Source: Lytechinus pictus (lineage: Eukaryota). From it: 64,000 bases of DNA. This document shows positions 3,647 through 15,580 of the stretch, piece after piece. A program made the translations under genes and the position numbers. The number at the start of each line of letters is the position of its first letter. Positions within the stretch are counted from its first letter, which is position 1. The notes beneath the pieces were generated by a model. The model saw only the letters and a list, made by a program, of their open reading frames with translations, did not search any database and was not told the origin of the DNA. The stretch covers positions 44,766,001 to 44,830,000 of the forward strand of contig NC_087251.1 of the NCBI RefSeq assembly GCF_037042905.1, read 5' to 3'.

Positions 3647-5706
3647 TCATAATTTTACTGTTTCCCATTTTTGCAAGTGCCGCCCTAATTTCCCCATTTT
3701 AATAGCTATTTTCTTCTCTTGATCCTTATATTCTAAAATACGTTTATGTATATCGTCAATGGTTGGTAATACCCCCTCCTTTCTAAATATAAATAATATA
3801 TATTTTACCATAAAGATAATAGTATTACAACTTTTTATTCTATTTGTATTGCCTGACAGACCAACAAATATATCCCGCCAATTCAAGTCCTTTATTTCAT
3901 CTAATTCAAATTGCTCTATCAAAGTTTCCCATATCAGTTTAACCTTTAAGCAAGACAAAAATATATGTGAATATGTTTCCGTTTCCCGTTTACAGTACGA
4001 ACAGAGATTATCTTCAACAAATCCAAATCTAAACAAATTAACTTTAGTGTAAATTGCCCCATGCAGTAGCTTAAATTGAAATTCTCTCTGTCTCCCAATC
4101 AATAATGTTATTCTTGGTCTAAAATAGCATTCACCAATTTCTTTCTCTGTATAATTATAATTATTTTGTCCATCTCTTATCTGTAAATCATATGACTTTT
4201 GCAATTCTTTAATAAGATAATCATATATTTTTCTTGATGGTACCTCCTTAAAGCTAATTTCCCTCCCCAACAGAAGCAAGTTTATATTATAGTTAATTAA
4301 GTCTATCTCACAAAATTGTATCGAACCTAAATCATTTCTCCAGTCACTTGGAATTGCATGATATATTTCACCTATTGTAAACAAATGATCACTTCCCATA
4401 CCAAGGTTAAAAAAGTACGCCACTGGTTTAACATGTCCATTGTCAATGATATGTTTCACCTTAATTAACCCTCATTCTAATAAATCTTTATCAAATATCG
4501 TCTTATTTTCTATACAAATATTCTTATTATTGAAAATGATTGGATTTTTAGAACCATTAAAATGTCTTAAATTATCGATCTCTTGCAAAGCATCTAGCAT
4601 TTCCAAATAATACGATGGAATCTTCAACTTACTTTTTATCTTTTTCATTTCATAATAACATAGAAAAATTAACTTTCCTCCAACTGAACTGAAAAAAATA
4701 GCTTCCACCCCAAATTTCTTTCTCCATACAAAAGTCTTTTTACCCACATTATACGCTGCGTTCTAACAAATATTTCAAAATTTATAATTTTAACCCCACC
4801 ACAATTATAATTCTGATACATAATTTTTCTTTTAATACGATCTTTCCCTCCCCATATAAAATCAAATGATAATTTCTCGATTTCTATATACACCCATGAG
4901 GGGACAACAAGGATGGATGAAACATAATTTAACTTTGTCAATGCATATGTTTTCAATAAATGTATTCTTCCCATAATAGTCAAATCTCGTTGTTTCCACC
5001 AACCTAAAAGCTTTTTTTATTTTACTTAATATTTCTTTATAGTTCAGATCATCTTTTAATCTAAAATCAACTGAAAAGATAACTCCTAAAATGTTGAACT
5101 CCCTAACATATTTACCAAATACATATACAGGGTCATTTGTTTTTCCATTTTCCTTACCCATGTACATAAAGTGTGTCTTGTCCTTATTTACCTTTAAGCC
5201 ACTGACTTTTTCAAATTATTCAAAATTATAATGCAACCTTTTTATTGAATCCATGTCTTTCAAAAAAATTGTCATATCATCGGCATACAATACCTGTCTT
5301 ATTTCATACTCCCCAAAACTTATCCCTTTAATGATTTTGTCTTTTCTTATTTCATGTGCCAGTAATTCTATTGCAATAAAAAACAAATAGGGCGACAGTG
5401 GGTCACCTTGTCTGACCCCCCCTTTCTACATTAAAGTAACCGCTGGAATACCCTCCATTCATAACACAACTACTTATATCCTTGTATATATTTTCACCCA
5501 AGAACAGAATGACTCCCCAAAACCAAAAAAAATGAGTGCTTTCAATAAGTATTGATGAGAAACAGAGTCAAAAGCTTTTTCAAAATCTACCGCAATAAAA
5601 AATCCTTGTCCTTGCTCCAAGTAATGTTTAGAGTAAAATAATATATCCTCTATTAGTCGAACTGCTTCCCCAATATTTCTGTCTTTTATGTATCCCACCT
5701 GATCAT
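3647..5706 (-). mobile_element. 5'-truncated, frameshifted non-LTR retrotransposon ORF2 (L1/Tx1-like reverse transcriptase plus C-terminal Cys/His region)
   Basis: Successive minus-strand ORF pieces give RT motifs DQVGYIKDRNIGEAVRLI, AVDFEKAFDSVSH, RQGDPLSPYLF and QVLYADDMTIF (~5270-5300), then GRIHLLKTYALTKLNY, FIWGGKDRIKR and FQFKLLHGAIYT..CSYC..ETYSHIFLSC. Several frameshifts. The 5' end abuts an (ATT)n/(CA)n microsatellite. Confidence 0.9.
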
Positions 5707-5736
5707 AATGAATTATTATTATTACACACACACACC

Positions 5737-5775
<39 letters not shown>

Positions 5776-8700
5776 ACACATGGATACCTCACTCATTGCA
5801 ATCTGCTTCATGATTTCTACACTCACACCCGACCGCAATCTATCGAAAAGGTGTTTTTTACACAATATTTTAAATCGAGACAGAGCCAAGCTATTTCTAA
5901 CGTCATGAGGTAACTTATTCCATTCTTTAACACAAACTATTCAAAATGAATTCAAAGCAGTTTGAGTTCTTGCTAATGGCTGATAGAGAAGGTTTCTCTG
6001 ACGAGTATGATACTTATTATCAAGCTCGTTGAATACCGAATCATATACAGTTTATCCGAAAGGTAAACTTCACGGGAATCACGGCCCTGGAATTCATGAG
6101 ATATGATCTCAAAATGGAGATTATGGCCCTCATACGTTTGACGTCACAAATTCAAAGGTTTAAATACCTATATCGTTGTTTATTCTTTGAAAGATTTTTG
6201 TTAAATTATGATTTGTTTGCGTCATTAAATATCAACTTTCACATTAGGGTGTGCTTCCTCTTTAATCATAAGCAAACATGACCCCAGAAGATTGGAAAGG
6301 TTGACTCTAATTTTTAATTCCCACCATATTCCATTCGTATTCAAAGCTCACTCTGTCAAACAAAATAGATTTTCAATATAGTTATGCGTGTACAGAGATT
6401 TTTCTGAATATAATCGGGGAATCGTTTATGAGATTTTCTCTGATATATTAATAGGCCTCTGGGGACCGTTTCACTGTTATCTGACAGGACAGGGCCGTGG
6501 GAACAATTTTAATTTAATGGAGGTCAAATTTATCACGAGAAATTAAAAATGAAAGGGGTTTTCACAACAAATGAAGATAATTTGAGTTATAATTTGTCAA
6601 TTTGTACACATCTTCCAGAATACTTGGGGGTGCTGCATATGGAGAATGACAGCACCCCCAAGGAAATTTTAGGGGGTGCTTCAGCACCACCGCTTCCCAG
6701 GGCCATGGTAAGACCTGAGTCAGCTGACAACTTTGCTCGATCGATTCGTTTGGCTAAGAAATGCCGTTCCTTTTGGAACTTTTTAGAACTTTTAGAAAAA
6801 CGACTTTGTCGGGTAAATAATATCTGACAAGACTTTTTATGAAATGCACCTCAGACTTGTGTGAACTATGTACCCTCTATCAACCTAAACTACTAACCAT
6901 TTTCCTTCCTCATTTTTGAGCGCACTCCACCCCCTCTCCCCCTCCCCCTCTCCCCCCTCCCCCTCTCTCCCCCCTCCCCTCTCCCCCCTCCCCCTCTCCC
7001 CCTCCCCCTCTCTCTCCCCTCTTTCTCATTTGTATTTCTCTCTCCTCCCAGTAGCATAACTGTAGCTCCCCAGAAAAAATATAATCATAAAAATTAATTA
7101 CTTGAATATTTTTTACGATGATGGGCACATTAAAGGGCAAACTTCAATAAATTCAGGATCGCGCAATAAAATCATGATACCTGGCTTTTGAAAATAAAAA
7201 TCTAATTTTTATGATAGAATTTGACTTCGTATTAATAAAATAATGGCATATGTCACCCTTTTCTCTTTTTTTTCTTTTGGCGATGGCACTATAGCTTGGC
7301 TGCCAACATCACTAATCTAAGCCCCTCCCATCTACACGTGCCCTCGATCCCTCCACGTTTCCATCTTCATTCCCTTCTCTTCCTCTCTATAAATCATCAG
7401 TGACATAATTATCTTAGAGAATCAGGTCCCGGAGCAAGTGCGAAAATTGCGTCCCTTCCATTAGTTTTACTGCATACAGGGATACAGACTATCACTGAAA
7501 TCGCGCCCCTTCATATTTTCGCAATATTTTTCATATGATTAACATTCTCTGGGGTTTTTTCATTCCCTTTTTTCCTACATTAAAAAAAAACGTTGCCTTG
7601 TTTGCGCCCCCTGAAAGTAATTGACCCGTGATGCCCCCTATAGAATACATAATATAGGTACTTTTAGTGCCTCCCTTCGATACTCGCCACTCTCTCCCTT
7701 TGCTTGAATCATTTCCTCATATCTTCTCTGTCGTCTCGATCTCCCTCCCTCCTTTGAAGAAAAAGAAATACATTTTCGCTTAACGCTCCCTCCCTTTGCC
7801 TAGCTGTTTGCTCACTTTTTTTCCGTTTCTCATATTTCCCCTTCCCACTCTCTCATTATCCTTTTTAAATAAATCGCCGTAAACTTAAGTAAATTTGCCA
7901 GAAATTCACAATGATGTACGTGCTGTGAGGGCCCAATTTGGTATTTTTATTCAACCTGTTCAAGCGGATCGGGGTCGCCGAAATGAAAAGATTCTAAGGT
8001 CAGGAGAATTAAGAGAATTTGTGAGTGCCTTGTTTCGTATTCAAAGCAAGACTTTCTCTCTTGAATGCGTACCCCTCCCATGACAATAGAAGAGGGGAAG
8101 ACTTGCCCCCCGTGTAGGGAATCTGTTATTGTTTGGACGCCATTGCATTGCATGGGGTGTTTTCACCCATGCAGTTACATCAACCGTTGTAGTACATCGT
8201 GCCAGGTGCCAGCGATAGCTGATTTCGCAACAACTTTCCGTGAGTATAATCCATCTTTATAAACTTACTTTTCAATTCCTTGTATTCACTTATTTTAAAG
8301 AAAAAATCCAAATGAATGATACAGTAGACATGTTCAGAATACACTATATGTTTAGTATATTACCCCGGATTATTAACCCATTTAGGAGGCCTGCATGGCG
8401 GTCCACCTATAGGGGGACAGCTAGGGTACGTGATATGCATGTTAATGAAAATTGTAAAAATAATGCTTCGTGTTTTATTTGTATGTAACCGTCAAACTCG
8501 TCCAAATAAATGTATCAGTCATGTTACCAATGCGCCCTGTAAATATATAATATATCGAAAACGAAATATCTTTCATCGGATGATATATGAAAACTCTGAT
8601 TGATATATTCCCCCCGAATATTTTGCTTCAATAAATACCGGCCTTAGCCTAGCTGAACAAAAATAAAGTGGATGCATGTTTATAACTTAATGTAACATCG

Positions 8701-9865
8701 ATGATATTTTATCCAGGATTTCTGTAATTACTTAATGATTACCAAATTCTCAGGACCACTATACGCTTTTATTATTTTAGACGTACACACAATATCCTGC
8801 TTCTTCTTGATCTCTCGATCTAGCTCATTCTATATTTCTGTCTACGTATCTCTCCCCCCCCCCCCTCTCTCTCTCTCACACAGTACTGCCCTATAACGTT
8901 CCCTATATCCGCTCACCATACCCCCGCCCCCCCTCTCTCTCTCTCTTCCCCCCCCCCCCCTCTCTCTCTCTCCCCCGGCCCCGGGCCTCTCTCCCTCTCT
9001 CTATTTATTTTACCCTCTTTCATTCATGGTAGGCCCACTATTAACCATTTCTGGTCAAGGGTAAACAAACAAAAAAGTTGTATGAAATCCTAATAGTTTG
9101 CCAGATTTGAATAGAAAACCTCCGGTCTGTTCAATGATGTTACATAACTCTGTTCTCGTATATAGGGACAAAAGACGACGATCAGAGGAAGGCCAGACCT
9201 GTTTATTATTTACACAAAAAGTGGTATGTTTATCATTTATACCAAAACCACCCCATTTAACAAACAGATGGATTTGGAGTTGTGGCATTTCAGAGGGAGA
9301 GATACGTTGTGTTTGCGAGATTTTCCATGAAGTAAGATTGAAGCCCAGTAACATGCACAGTCATGCGAGTTCTACATTATTTCTACTTTTTTCTTTATAA
9401 GGACAAACCGTCTGATGTATTTGAGCAATACTGTGCCCTTTTAAAAATTCTTATGAAGGAAATTTTACAAATGGATATACCCATGCACGTATAGTTATGT
9501 ATAAATGGATGGCACAACCCTCAACGGTAGTTGACGGTCCGCAATGTAATGAGTAAACTATAAATATTCACGAATATTATTGATTAATTTCAATAGAGAC
9601 ATAATCCTTTTGGCATTAATGATAAAGCGCTGTCTTCCATCTTCAGGAAAATGAAGTGGGGGGGGGGTATAGAGGAATATATATATATTTTGCCCCTCTA
9701 ATGTAAATATATAGATTTGAGCAATGATCAACCTGCAATGCTCTTTTTTTTTAAAGGAGATAAATTCCGGCAAGGGCGCCAAAAGCGGAGGGACACGGCT
9801 GATGCCACCCAAAGCCGATAAGATGATGCCCCCCCCCACCGAAACTCACTTCCGGTACACCTGGC

Positions 9866-11931
9866 CAAAGGCGGATCCAGGGGGCCGAGGGGCCCGCCCC
9901 CCCCCCCTTATTGGCGGAGCAAAAAAGAAGAAAAAAAGGAAAGAAAGAAAAAAAGATTAAAAAGGAGGGAAATGAGGAGAGAAAAAAGAAGAGGGGGAAA
10001 ACGAGTGAATAAAATAAGATGAAGGAAAGACTTGGAAAATAAAAATAATCTTTCATGTCACTATATAAAATTTTCGCTCGCGCTTCGCGCTCGCAATGCC
10101 TGATAGGTCATTTTCATATCTTGTTCAATATGGAGTTTAAATATCAAGATTGGAAGTCAATATACAAAACATATTTCACCTCGGAAATCGAACTTTCATT
10201 ATTTTGTGTGATTTACAAATTGATTTTTTTAAAGTACTCTGTTAAAATGTTAGTTTTATGGTCTGAATATTCTGCTCGCGCTGCGCACTCGCAAATTTTG
10301 ATTTATCAGGTACCTATTATTTTCGTGTATTCCGTAAAGTTTTCAAAATATCCCTTTTCAGGTCTGATTGTCAAAACGTATCAGCTAGCGCTGCGCTCGC
10401 ATTTTGATTGGAGAGGTATGTTTCAATATTGATTATACAACAAACTACTTAAAATCCCCATTTATTGACAGTTTATCAAAAAATTTGGCTCGCGATTTGC
10501 GCTCGCATTAATGCTTAAAATATATTAACTGATGCATCCTTATAATTACAAAAGTGCTTGAAATGTCCAGTTTTCAGGCCATAATATCATCAGATTTCGA
10601 GCCCTCATTAGCCATTAATGAGTAAGATATTAATTTAGAAATTAAATTGTCCCTTTTGTTTTATCTCGCGCTTAGTAAGAGGAATAGGAAGATAGTCATT
10701 ATTTTCATATGATGACATGTCCTAAGGATGTCCCGGTCATATATGTAAAAACTCAAAGTAATAATAATGGAACGTATCAGCTCTTTATTAAGTGCGATCC
10801 ATATCCACCTCACAATTTTCCTACAAAATGCTTGACATATAGAGCAGAAATTGACCCTTTTTTTCAGTCGGAATATCAAATAGTTTAAACTATTTAAATC
10901 ATTATCCAGTTTCAGATCACAATATCAAAAAATTTCTGCACGCGCTTTGTGCTTGCATTATCAAGGTATGAAGATCCCTTATTACTCATTCTTTTCATGA
11001 TTTACAAAACATGAATAGAGTGTCCCGTTTTTAGGTCTATATATCTCGATTTTTCCGCTTGCGCTTCGCGCTCACATGAATTGTTTAGTTTTATAGCTAT
11101 CCTGTTCACGATTACAAAAATTGATTAAAATTTTTCCATTCTTTATGTAGAATTGTCAAAATGTTTCAGCTCGCGCTTAGCATTCGCATTATTTGATTGT
11201 TAAAATACGTAGCGTCTTCATGGCTAAGTGCAAGCAGTCTTTAACAGGTACCTTTTCGACCACTTTAATATGTATACATATAAAAATTTTCTGCTCGCAC
11301 TTTGCGCTCGCATTATTAATGTAAGGAAGATCCCCAATTACTCATCCTTTTCATGATTTACAAACATGAATAGAGTGTCTCGTTCAGTAGTTCTAAATCT
11401 CGAAATTTTCCGCTCGCATCAATTGTTTATACCTATTCTGTTTAAGTTACAAAAGTGCTGAGAATTTCCATTTTGTAGGTAAAAATGTCAAAAAATTTCA
11501 GCTCGCGCTTCGCGCTCGCATTATTTTAATTTTAAAGTATTTAACGTCTTCATGGCTAACTCCAAGCAGTCTTTAACAGGTACCTTTTTTATCGGTTCAT
11601 TTCTGCTCGCGCTTCGCGTTCGTAGTAATTATTTAATTGCATACACATCTTTTCAAAATAACAAACATTGCCCAGAATGTTCAAATTTTAGGAAAAAGAC
11701 ATCAAATTTCCCAAAAATATTGAGCTCGCGCTTCGCGCTCGCATTATATAAATAATGATTATATTATATATTTATGTTGATTTATAAGAATAAAACTAAG
11801 AAGTGACTATTAGGACTACCCCCTTCAAAGAAACCAAAAATCATCTTCGAGCGGCCGATCGTGGAAAATATGGCTGAAAAAAAATTCCGGGCAACCCACC
11901 CCCCTATTGGCGAAGGATGGATCCGCCCCCG
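9866..11931. mobile_element. ~2.1-kb non-autonomous DNA transposon (hAT-type 8-bp TSD)
   Basis: TIRs CAAAGGCGGATCCA / TGGATCCGCCCCCG; perfect TSD CACCTGGC at 9858-9865 and 11932-11939; internal subrepeats containing GCGCTTCGCGCTCGCA; no transposase ORF. Confidence 0.85.
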
Positions 11932-12798
11932 CACCTGGCATATGCATTATTTAAAAGAAAATACATACCAATATGTAATACATGTAGGTTACTATTATGT
12001 TTGCTAGTATACTTCAACTGCACTAAAACTGGCCGAAGGGAACCAATGATGTATTCATGAATATCAATTCAATCTCGTGCATGCGATCGCGATATTGATT
12101 ATGGCACTGCATTGTGTTCCCATAGCAACTACAGGGACTGGATGAGACAATGACATCTTGTCTGCATTTACCATCATCAAGTCTTGATGATATCGCAATT
12201 GATATATCGTGTGTGTTGGTATATTCATTTTGAAAGCCAAAAGAGCCTAATTTTGATTGCGTGTTCAACAATTGTGAAGACATAATAATGTGCAGAAAGT
12301 CTGATTATAAAATAATATATGTGCAAACACTGGCTTGGTGAGGTAACGTTAATTGTCATCATTAATTTCGTCTGATTGTCAAAACTACTTTTATTTGATC
12401 ATTACCAACGTACCCTGATCGGTATACGACACCGGATGATCAGCAGATATAGGCATACGTGCATGACGTTTCAATTTGATTTGTCCTATGTTTTCCGTAA
12501 GAGTAAAAGCATTTCCGACTACAGCCAAAATAAGTAAATAAATAAGGGGTAGCGCTACGCCTAGGAGGGGGGGGGGGTGGCATGGAGGCGAGCACCCCTA
12601 TGGTTTTAAATCAGTGAAAAAAGGGATAAAAATGAGGAAGAGAAAGGAAACAAAAATAGAGACCCAATTGAGTGTTGAAGAATTAGGGAATGATGTCAGC
12701 TTGGGGAGAGGGTTAATTGGAGAGATGAAGAGAGATGGTGAGAACTCTTTGACTCTTGGGAGACGAAGGGCAAATCTGTAGCCTCTGGGGCATATAGG

Positions 12799-12832
<34 letters not shown>

Positions 12833-12848
12833 GGTGAGCTTTATTGTA

Positions 12849-12887
12849 TCCCTGAAGAAGACGTGGGATTTACGTCGAAAATTTGGA
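12849..12887 (+). ncRNA. Degenerate minimal hammerhead ribozyme-like motif (Penelope-like element remnant)
   Basis: TCC-CTGAAGA-A-GACGT(GGGATTT)ACGTC-GAAA-ATTT-GGA: catalytic boxes, 5-bp stem II, palindromic AATT stem III, but only a 3-bp stem I. Lies between (TA)n tracts. Confidence 0.5.
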
Positions 12888-12997
12888 CTTGGAAATAAAC
12901 TCTGTTGGAACTAGTACAATGCATTACCTCTTTGCCTCTTTTATCTCATCTATGTCCAACACGCGAAATGTAATATCGTTATATACAGTATATATAA

Positions 12998-13033
<36 letters not shown>

Positions 13034-13063
13034 TAGTAATAGGTCGGAGCGAGTTGCTTAGAT

Positions 13064-13110
13064 TTTAGTTGTACAGACTGTTTCCCCCTGAGGGTTCATC
13101 AGCAACTAAA
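13064..13110 (-). ncRNA. Minimal type-I hammerhead ribozyme (minus-strand copy)
   Basis: Exact reverse complement of the 13453-13499 motif. Confidence 0.7.
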
Positions 13111-13452
13111 TCAAATTTAATGTTGAACTAAAGTACAACCTGTGTCTGTGGGAGAAGTACCACATAATCACGGCCAAGAAAGCAGCAATGATAAACTCAA
13201 GAACAGATCTCATTTCAACTTGTAAACACAAGAAGAAATTTTTACTTTCAGGTTATGGTTAACCATAGAACACCCCCCCCCCCCTTATGTGTCAAACCCA
13301 CTCCACCCCAACATTACCCCAGTTTAAAGAATAGCTATTATCTGTTCACTGTAGTTATTTATCCCCCTTACATTGTGTCTTTTGTTTGTTTGCTTGACTG
13401 CACTAGAGTTATTGTTCTCTTTAACTGTACTTTAGTTAAACATTAAATTTTA

Positions 13453-13499
13453 TTTAGTTGCTGATGAACCCTCAGGGGGAAACAGTCTGTACAACTAAA
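13453..13499 (+). ncRNA. Minimal type-I hammerhead ribozyme
   Basis: Stem I TTTAGTTG/CAACTAAA (8 bp), CTGATGA box, extra A, stem II CCC-TCAG-GGG, GAAA box, quasi-palindromic stem III ACAG-T-CTGT, cleavage triplet GUA (predicted cut after 13491). Confidence 0.72.
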
Positions 13500-13716
13500 A
13501 TCTAAGCAACTCGCTCCACCCTATTACTATACTACATGAAGATCCTATATGTACATGTAGTTGAGCACTTTTCAGTAACTGTAGTTTCGTATAGTCATTA
13601 TATATATATATGTAAACATAGATGAAAACATAATTATCTAACACACTGAATTTTCTTTTGTAAAACAGACTTGAAGTTCTAGAGACGGCTTATTTTATAG
13701 TCAAAATCTCCACAAC

Positions 13717-15183
13717 ATGCCTGTCAACGGAAAAACCTGTTGCAGGGCCCTGCAGCGGGTCGTACCTCGGCTTATCCTCATCACCGCCTACATCTTCTAC
13801 CTCCTCTTCGGCGGCCTGGTCTTCTCCATGATCGAAGGTCCAAGGTACGACCAACTCGTAGCCGAGGAGGAGTACGACTTCGAGATGGCCAAAGACCTGC
13901 TCATCCAGGCTTACGGGAACGACACGAGCAGTATCGACGGAGATGCTGTCTTCGAGAGACTTAAGAGATTGGTCTATGCCGCGGAACACGGCGATGGTGT
14001 GATGATAGGTCAGCATAACAAGACAGTCGTGATCGGAGAGGAGTGGAGCTTTGGGAACTCCATGCTGTTTTGCATGACCAGTATCTCGACAATTGGTAAG
14101 GAAATCGATCCGATCACTATTGGATAATTATTTTAACAATGACATGTCCTCTAGTGCATGGTGATCCTTGGTCGAGTCCCATCTTTAGTCCCGATGAAAT
14201 CAATTATGATTACATTCTTCATGCTATTTGTCTAAGATACATTGGTAATAGGCCCTATACCGAGACGGGCGGGCTAATTGCTTACAGTATTATCTTAATG
14301 ATTAAAATCAGAGTCATTAAAACCACATCTTGATTAATCGATATCCATGCATTCACAACTGTGATACCAGAAATTCGGTTAAAAGGTGGTGAATTATTGT
14401 ATTTGTATTTTGTGATCTATTGCAGGATATGGTCATCTTGTCCCTCATACATTCATTGGAGGCTTCATCTGCGTCATGTACACAAGCGTCGGGATACCTC
14501 TGACAATGCTTCTGCTCGCCGACCTCGGTCGCCTGTATGCAGTAATCATCATGAAAATGTACTACAAGTGTCTGGCAATGTGTTGCAGATGCGGGAAGGA
14601 CAAAGGACAGAAGAGCAGTCAGCGCGATTCCCAAGACCCAGGAGCTGGTGGCAGCGGTGGGATGGATCCCGATGGAGAAAAGGAGAACAACCGGGAGCTA
14701 GATCTTACAGAGATCGAAGTTACCCCTGAGGAAGAGGGCGCCCTGCATAGTCCGAATGGAGCTGAGAACCACCACGTAGACGAACCCCAGATCCAGGTGA
14801 TCGGTCACAACCATCAACAGGACATCGATGCTGACGACGCATTGCTGGACGACGTCCCGATTTTCCTGCCGCCAATCGTGTTCTGGAGCTACATCATCCT
14901 CAGCGCTCCTATGTTTGCCCTCATCGAAGGTTGGTCTTTCCCTACGTCCATTTATTTCCTCTACATCTCCATCACCACCATCGGTTTCGGGGATGTTGTA
15001 CCGGAATGCTCCATAGGGCTTGTCTTTGCTTGGATGGGTCTGGTCACCACGGCGACATGCGTCGTTCTTGCGTACCGCAAGATCATCAAAGTGGCCACAT
15101 GGGTGCTAGAATTCCTGGATTCACTAGTCAGAAGAGAACGTATTCGGCAGAGGGATGCACGCTATTCTAGCATGTCGATTTAG
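13717..15183 (+). CDS. Two-pore-domain (K2P/KCNK, TWIK/TRESK-like) potassium channel, 378 aa, 2 coding exons
   Basis: Exons 13717-14095 and 14426-15183 (phase-1 GT..AG intron) rebuild P1 WSFGNSMLFCMTSISTIG|YGHLVP; P2 WSFPTSIYFLYISITTIGFGDVVP; M1 YLLFGGLVFSMIE; M2 YTSVGIPLTMLLL. An acceptor at 13667-13668 suggests an upstream 5'UTR exon. Confidence 0.93.
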
Positions 15184-15580
15184 ATACCTTGATAGCGAGT
15201 TTTTGCTGACGACGCACAACGAATTCATAACAAATAACAGCCAAGAAGCCCGTGTCGAAAATTGGCGAATCAAAACAGCAGTTTCGTCCTAATTGCAAAT
15301 TATGTCGCTGTCCAGAGTCCGGGACGAAACTGCTGTTCCGGTTCACCAGTTTTCCAGAAGACATCCCGACTGCTCTTTGTCATTATTTTGACGGGTGTTT
15401 TCCTTACATTTACAGTGTTCTTGAATGCGTCGTGCGTCCCGGTGCGAAAACACCCTATTGAAACAGTCACACGAAAACGAAACCGACTCCAAAACGACCG
15501 ATAGTATGCCATTGGTAATAACGTCATAGAATTGATCGGTCTGGAATCGGTATCGCTCGTGTGACTGTGGCATACGTGGA

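Follow-up and report, generated by a model that had tools for sequence, protein, structure and literature searches.

A 5'-truncated, two-armed Penelope-like insertion in a K2P channel gene intron of Lytechinus pictus carries a sense hammerhead motif that is likely to be inert, being predicted to fold into a hairpin

The locus described here raised two questions: how did an inverted pair of minimal hammerhead ribozyme motifs come to lie just upstream of a K2P channel coding exon, and could the pair act on the channel transcript? We addressed these questions in a 64,000-nucleotide stretch of the Lytechinus pictus genome, referred to below as the window. It was very probable, in our judgment, that a Penelope-like element (PLE) of the Hydra clade had left a two-armed copy, truncated at its 5' end, in the 5'-UTR intron of the K2P gene, and that the sense hammerhead of this copy, which was predicted to be locked in a hairpin, was likely to be inert.

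An inverted repeat with identical hammerhead motifs in both arms

The original prediction described a 109-bp inverted repeat with a complete type-I hammerhead in each arm, and that description was borne out. Positions 13029-13137 and 13426-13534 matched at 105 of 109 positions (arms of ~109 to 112 nt, ~96%), with mismatches at right-arm positions 13438, 13451, 13518, and 13519 and a 288-nt spacer between the arms. Both arms contained the same 47-nt minimal type-I hammerhead, which was made up of an 8-bp stem I, CUGAUGA, A-CCC-UCAG-GGG, GAAA, ACAG-U-CUGU, and GUA. The CUGAUGA box was located at 13461 (+) and 13102 (-), and the GAAA box of the + copy was located at 13479.

The CUGANGA, GAAA, and UH core and stems I and II were all present. 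The core boxes, the 8-bp stem I, and the quasi-palindromic stem III around its 1-nt loop were as originally predicted; stem II, which had been given as CCC-UCAG-GGG, could also be read as an A.G mismatch plus CCC-UCA-GGG. The G10.1-C11.1 pair, which is conserved in most minimal hammerheads (PMC4209133), was absent; domain II opened with A and closed with G. The stem III sequence ACAGUCUGU was self-complementary around a U.U mismatch, and two copies of it were predicted to pair intermolecularly over 8 bp, at -8.3 kcal/mol. We also observed that the UCAG of loop II and the catalytic-box CUGA (window 13461-13475) were complementary, which may allow a 4-bp misfold; the corresponding loop was UUCG in the two closest relatives.

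Rfam yielded no hammerhead at the gathering threshold or at an E value of ≤10. When the 64-kb window was scanned with a hammerhead descriptor, three motifs were recovered, namely those in both arms and one at 12852 that belonged to another repeat. In 200 block-wise dinucleotide shuffles, the mean number of relaxed matches was 0.025, and none of the matches had an 8-bp stem I. The isolated hammerhead folded no better than shuffled sequences (z about -1.3), as expected for a minimal motif.

The repeat belongs to a truncated PLE insertion

The feature in the window was a 573-bp, 5'-truncated PLE insertion in a (TA)n tract, spanning positions 13029-13601. As shown in Table 1, the copy consisted, in order, of (TA)15, the inverted arm, a 2-nt overlap, the end of the ORF, the 3' UTR with a hammerhead, a tail of ~65 nt, and (TA)6. 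The first 127 nt of the spacer between the arms coded for the end of the PLE ORF. No target-site duplication could be discerned at the insertion because of the (TA)n tract.

The interval originally proposed (13029..13534) was real but too short, since it missed the tail and the element reached ~13601. The feature had also been called a PLE or retrozyme relic. The PLE part of this claim was supported by the ORF end, the family copies, and the tail; the retrozyme part did not fit the coding remnant, the inverted pair, and the variable truncation.

Table 1. Features of the PLE insertion and of the K2P gene that contains it (window positions)
Feature	Position	Strand	Evidence or comment
3' end of upstream non-coding K2P exon; GT donor at 8240	8210..8239	+	Spliced RNA reads
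5'-UTR intron of K2P gene, 5,429 nt, GT..AG, hosts the insertion	8240..13668	+	RNA reads
Left (TA)n target tract	13001..13030		Sequence
Inverted, 5'-truncated arm of PLE terminal repeat, without tail	13029..13137	-	2-nt overlap with direct copy (CA, 13136-13137)
Minimal type-I hammerhead, antisense to K2P transcript	13064..13110	-	Motif parsing and descriptor scan
Last 41 codons and stop of PLE RT-GIY-YIG ORF (end of CxxC..E..N..CxH region)	13136..13262	+	40/41 residues identical to L033 700-codon frame
PLE 3' UTR / pseudo-LTR	13263..13534	+	Contains the direct repeat arm (13426-13534)
Minimal type-I hammerhead, sense to K2P transcript; A13491 precedes predicted cut	13453..13499	+	Motif parsing and descriptor scan
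PLE tail, ~65 nt	13535..13601	+	In tandem copies, the sequence after the repeat, leading into the ORF
Right (TA)n tract	13600..13611		Sequence
K2P first coding exon; ATG at 13717; first pore motif completed across splice	13669..14094	+	RNA and translation
K2P second coding exon to stop; 378-aa protein, TIGYG and TIGFG pore motifs	14425..15183	+	RNA and translation

The insertion lies in a 5'-UTR intron of the K2P gene

In RNA runs labelled with the same species, reads crossing 13668/13669 ran on into the upstream exon (20 reads in X22 and 17 in X23), with 29 of 30 letters matching. These reads had one extra G at the joint; the GT..AG intron 8240-13668 was matched by the X1 and X5 contigs, which started at 13669. 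The X1 contig (1,663 nt) was spliced at 13669, had 307 nt before that position, and showed no differences from the assembly over the aligned part, and X22 and X23 differed from the assembly at many exon positions. The K2P exon had a single match in the assembly, and no second copy (paralogue or haplotype) was found there. Stranded reads indicated that the K2P locus was transcribed on the + strand. Because an in-frame TGA at 13672 precedes the ATG, the intron is in the 5' UTR.

Thus, the RNA check for an upstream K2P exon was positive, and the suggestion that the sense hammerhead is inside the channel pre-mRNA was confirmed: the motif was 177 nt before the 13668 acceptor, in an intron shown by reads. 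A K2P transcription start site downstream of 13534 was rejected for the sampled transcripts, whose reads were joined to 8210-8239. An acceptor-like TTTCAG in the tail (13570-13575) was likewise rejected as a cryptic splice site, as the sense depth behind it was 0.2-0.6 versus 26-55 in the exon.

The RNA reads that aligned to the element itself came from other copies. Specifically, 10/10 X22 reads and 2/2 X23 reads at 13208 carried the other letter, and 11 (X22) and 3 (X23) of the element reads extended into upstream ORF sequence. Unique intron sequence (11948-12640) had zero RNA depth, so the reads neither showed nor excluded cleavage of the intron. At the orthologous site, the DNA contigs of organism B broke at repeats on both sides.

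Several other features were observed in and around the gene. In the K2P 3' UTR, one contig and two sets of RNA reads (26 and 36) lacked the segment 15572-15770, which ends AT..AA; an insertion that those animals do not carry is a likelier explanation than an intron. A 33-nt inverted repeat with 85% complementarity was also present in the 3' UTR (15257-15354). Upstream of the K2P 5' exon, ~4000-5715 (-) resembled, by eye, a degraded LINE reverse-transcriptase fragment. The intron that hosts the insertion also contained a diverged array at ~10050-11800 with a recurring CTCGCGCTTCGCGCTCGC-like motif, which was present at high copy in the reads.

A young family with variable truncation points

The genome-wide search for copies that had been suggested at the outset recovered copies linked to an RT/GIY-YIG ORF and copies in tandem. 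At least 53 genomic matches to query 13130-13540 were found in the 812-Mb genome. Two loci (L031 and L032) were near-full-length partial tandems that formed pseudo-LTRs, with a unit of 2,491 bp and RT and GIY-YIG frames. The 719-codon frame in L031 and the 700-codon frame in L033 contained YRDD and VIY..VYIG motifs, and 2,313 of 8,000 scored proteins matched the family protein frame at an E value of ≤1e-30. Among the 120 homologues listed, one had PF01541 and one had PF00078; a local Pfam scan of the 719-codon frame and of the 47-residue window remnant gave no RT or GIY-YIG match.

When 36 locus groups were mapped on the unit, an inverted part was found in 18 and the tail in 27. The hammerhead was spanned by both arms in 5 of the 36 groups, and in all five of them the tail was on exactly one arm. 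These loci were picked by similarity to the window, and the fractions are therefore not genome-wide rates. Eight groups on C21 and two on C10 were probably duplications, which would leave ~28 independent events, ~11 of them with an inversion. The eight C21 copies (L002, L003, L006, L008, L010, L012, L018, and L027) were ~100 kb apart at 5.70-6.40 Mb; seven had breakpoints in common and all eight had flanking letters in common, which suggests that a single insertion was multiplied as part of a large tandem duplication. Most copy ends, like the window flanks, were (TA)n.

Sequence divergence indicated that the family is young. Among 29 loci compared, 11 of the 12 closest differed from the window copy by 7-10 substitutions over 416-484 aligned bases, and the remaining one differed by 3 substitutions over 332 bases. 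Of the family copies that spanned the hammerhead, 25/35 were identical to the window in the motif, and the CUGAUGA and GAAA boxes, whose loss would have counted against the original prediction, were kept in 34/35. This near-identity reflects the youth of the family. The window was the only one of the five two-armed loci in which both hammerheads were unmutated; about half would be expected to be intact at 25/35 per copy.

Assignment to the Hydra clade

The motifs of the protein pointed to a place for the family in the Hydra clade of C-terminal EN+ PLEs, with a single reference, Hydra-1_Ajap, compared by eye. This clade is defined by features that include a length of <3 kb, DKT, a CxCx5C linker, CxxC/CxH around E and N, and no CCHH (PMC8557442). 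The corresponding traits in the family were ADKTN, CNCRKKEDC, and CNLCLWE..N..CKH, and in the alignment the stretch from the GIY-like to the YIG-like motif was free of cysteines. Like the clade, of which Hydra-1_Ajap and Hydra-2_Amil are examples, the family had a unit of <3 kb, a single RT and GIY-YIG ORF, DKT, CxCx5C, and (TA)n targets (PMC8557442). The family protein also resembled that of Hydra-1_Ajap when compared by eye with the text of the supplement to PMC8557442. Published hammerheads of the clade also follow the ORF, have a 4-bp palindrome and a 1-nt loop in stem III, and often lack the G10.1-C11.1 pair (PMC8557442), as was observed here.

There were a few differences. The family had RWR where RWK is typical of the clade (PMC8557442); among nine aligned homologues, RWK was found in four, RWR in four, and RWQ in one. 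The family tail was ~65 nt, compared to the 30-40 bp quoted for PLEs, and the short domain II was opened by A.G in the family and by U.U in several of the Hydra motifs published in PMC8557442. Taken together, the sequences appeared to represent one putatively new, young Hydra-clade PLE family in a layout already described.

A GAGCACT(T/C)TCAG-like motif was observed after the repeat end in the window (13564-13575), in the two closest related loci (L055 and L056), and near the start of the published Hydra-1_Ajap (PMC8557442). It is possibly a promoter element, a 3' splice site, or a protein-binding site of the clade.

The hammerhead in related elements

Structural comparison gave stronger evidence on the ribozyme than this near-identity. 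Among 18 related metagenome loci, a strict scan detected a hammerhead in 7 (one of them on the opposite strand) and inspection by eye added 3, for a total of 10; the other 8 had none. Nine of the ten were in the sense orientation downstream of the ORF. When 11 motifs were aligned, 93% of the 44 cells in the four core-proximal stem I pairs were paired, with 17 double changes, and none of 500 shuffles reached that level of pairing; because the rows are related, this is not a probability. Covariation was counted for stem I only, and stem III and domain II were parsed by motif. One related motif (L056:1579-1610) had GAAG for GAAA and CAG-C-CUG, indicating that the A15.1-U16.1 position varies.

Origin of the pair and predicted fate in the pre-mRNA

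The PLE literature suggests how such a copy may arise. The RT-GIY-YIG protein would have nicked the (TA)n tract, two short cDNAs would have been made from the 3' end of the element, with the tail as the start of the first and the repeat end as the start of the second, and the cDNAs would have been joined head to head through the 2-nt overlap. The PLE tail has been tied to two reverse-transcription start sites (PMC11167929). In the mobile element, the hammerhead would be under structural selection, and tandem copies could swap stem III strands, which would allow cleavage as dimers; the dimer model of minimal hammerhead cleavage is summarised in PMC6765202. Cleavage was dispensable for PLE insertion in vitro (PMC11167929).

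The inverted pair itself was a standard by-product of PLE insertion; such pairs were found at other family loci and have already been published (PMC4209133, PMC8557442, PMC3846280). In Schistosoma, "dual min-HHRs ~100-700 bp apart in opposite strands" have been reported (PMC4209133), which is the same observation as the pair in the window. An inverted arm plus a tail has been described for PLEs (PMC8557442 Fig. 2; PMC3846280), and Pen2a_Av of Adineta vaga has a head-to-head inverted 5'-truncated arm, a tail on one arm, and a short junction overlap (PMC3846280; PMC8557442), as the window copy does. Unlike the layouts given for Pen2a_Av and Schistosoma in these sources, the window copy kept only 41 ORF codons and had no discernible target-site duplication. 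The locus illustrates why inverted hammerhead pairs in animal introns are usually footprints of insertion.

Folding of 13029-13534 was modelled at equilibrium, without kinetics, proteins, or tertiary contacts. In the ensemble, the hammerhead region was paired to the left arm with a probability of 0.999, and stem I had a probability of 0.000. Forcing stems I and II changed the free energy from -226 to -148 kcal/mol, a cost of ~78 kcal/mol; the duplex was worth -176 kcal/mol, compared to about -7.5 to -12 kcal/mol for the hammerhead. In transcription snapshots ending at 13460-13520, hairpin pairing was already 0.91-0.94, and when the left arm was removed, the probability of stem I was only 0.12-0.17. 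The proposal that the antisense copy sequesters the sense copy was therefore supported by the model. The accompanying proposal of competing cleavage-competent and blocked folds was not, given the dominance of the hairpin and the size of the energy gap in silico.

No same-sense family copy was found in the 64-kb window; the only copy in cis was antisense. In the K2P pre-mRNA, the antisense arm would be made first and is predicted to capture the emerging sense arm, and because of this capture and the lack of a same-sense family partner in the intron, no cleavage is predicted. The sense hammerhead is predicted to be held in the 109-bp hairpin and is likely inert and removed by splicing, and the pair probably does not act as a channel switch. 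The insertion would matter more only if K2P expression differed between carriers and non-carriers.

Alternative readings of the locus

An improbable alternative accepts the same origin and gives the duplex a role: in a Pol II intron, the 109-bp duplex could undergo editing, be processed by Dicer to small RNAs that target the family, or slightly alter splicing at 13668. The hairpin was predicted to be formed almost always in a transcribed intron, other family copies showed low-level transcription on both strands, and small-RNA coverage has been reported for Penelope families with inverted structures (PMC3846280). Against this reading, spliced mRNA was observed, and ~130 nt separated the end of the hairpin from the acceptor. 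Slightly less probable still is the idea that the inverted arm is a built-in muzzle. PLE copies in the sense orientation in introns would be tolerated where the antisense arm of the copy itself covers the hammerhead. At this locus, the hairpin, or else occasional cleavage of trans-dimers formed with transcripts of the family, would turn the insertion into a cis-acting allele that alters K2P expression or supplies anti-family small RNAs.

We considered it very unlikely that the pair is an intronic switch in which a cleavage-competent hammerhead and a blocked hairpin tune K2P mRNA. The sense hammerhead was intact and in the pre-mRNA, in vitro cleavage has been reported for a related PLE hammerhead (PMC11167929), and the CPEB3 HDV-like ribozyme (PMC10919898), like amniote intronic hammerheads (PMC6765202), provides a precedent for a self-cleaving type of motif that is intronic and sense to its host. 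However, for CPEB3, self-cleavage and an effect on host mRNA have been measured (PMC10919898), whereas the window motif was a young dispersed copy that would depend on dimers and was predicted to be masked. A switch would also have to bridge the 78-kcal/mol gap, and with a 1-nt loop III the motif cannot close as a monomer. A single minimal PLE hammerhead gave no detectable cleavage, and dimers gave low cleavage (PMC4209133). The anole RNA-seq data in PMC11167929 contained no reads ending at the PLE cut site, and we observed no pile-up of read ends at 13491, a weak point given the low depth. The insertion was also young, and its layout recurred at other loci.

The least probable reading, that of a MITE-like or retrozyme-type non-autonomous 573-bp unit, has the long inverted termini in a TA context on its side, but it was rejected because truncation points varied while 3' ends were fixed, the interior was ORF sequence, the window breakpoints were found in no other of the 36 locus groups (breakpoints in common occurred only among the eight C21 and two C10 groups, which also had flanks in common), and no tandem array of short hammerhead units was present. 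Metazoan non-LTR retrozymes share a type-I hammerhead and PLE ancestry with the insertion, but they are described as non-coding tandem arrays with same-sense hammerheads (bioRxiv 10.64898/2026.07.22.740005), unlike the coding sequence and inverted pair in the window.

With regard to the preferred reading, a two-armed PLE insertion, the near-identical copies with two sharp 3' ends (the repeat end and the tail end) would suit tests of PLE reverse transcription from two start sites (PMC11167929). No biochemical study of the Hydra clade was found in the PLE literature examined.

A second hammerhead-like repeat in the same intron

A second minimal hammerhead-like motif (~12849-12890) was observed in a repeat at 12833-12986 (+), 45 nt from the focal insertion and in the sense orientation in the intron. 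The motif had CUGAAGA, a 7-bp stem II, GAAA-AU-UU, a 3-bp stem I, and a stem III unlike the focal one. This was a different and more abundant repeat, located between (CT)n(TA)n and (TA)n. A search with 40 Hydra-like proteins found no ORF remnant in 12 of its loci. From 519 candidates, 55 matches to the repeat were obtained, and many of them had an inverted partner next to them. No parent element was found; the copies probably represent another PLE family that inserted as very short pieces.
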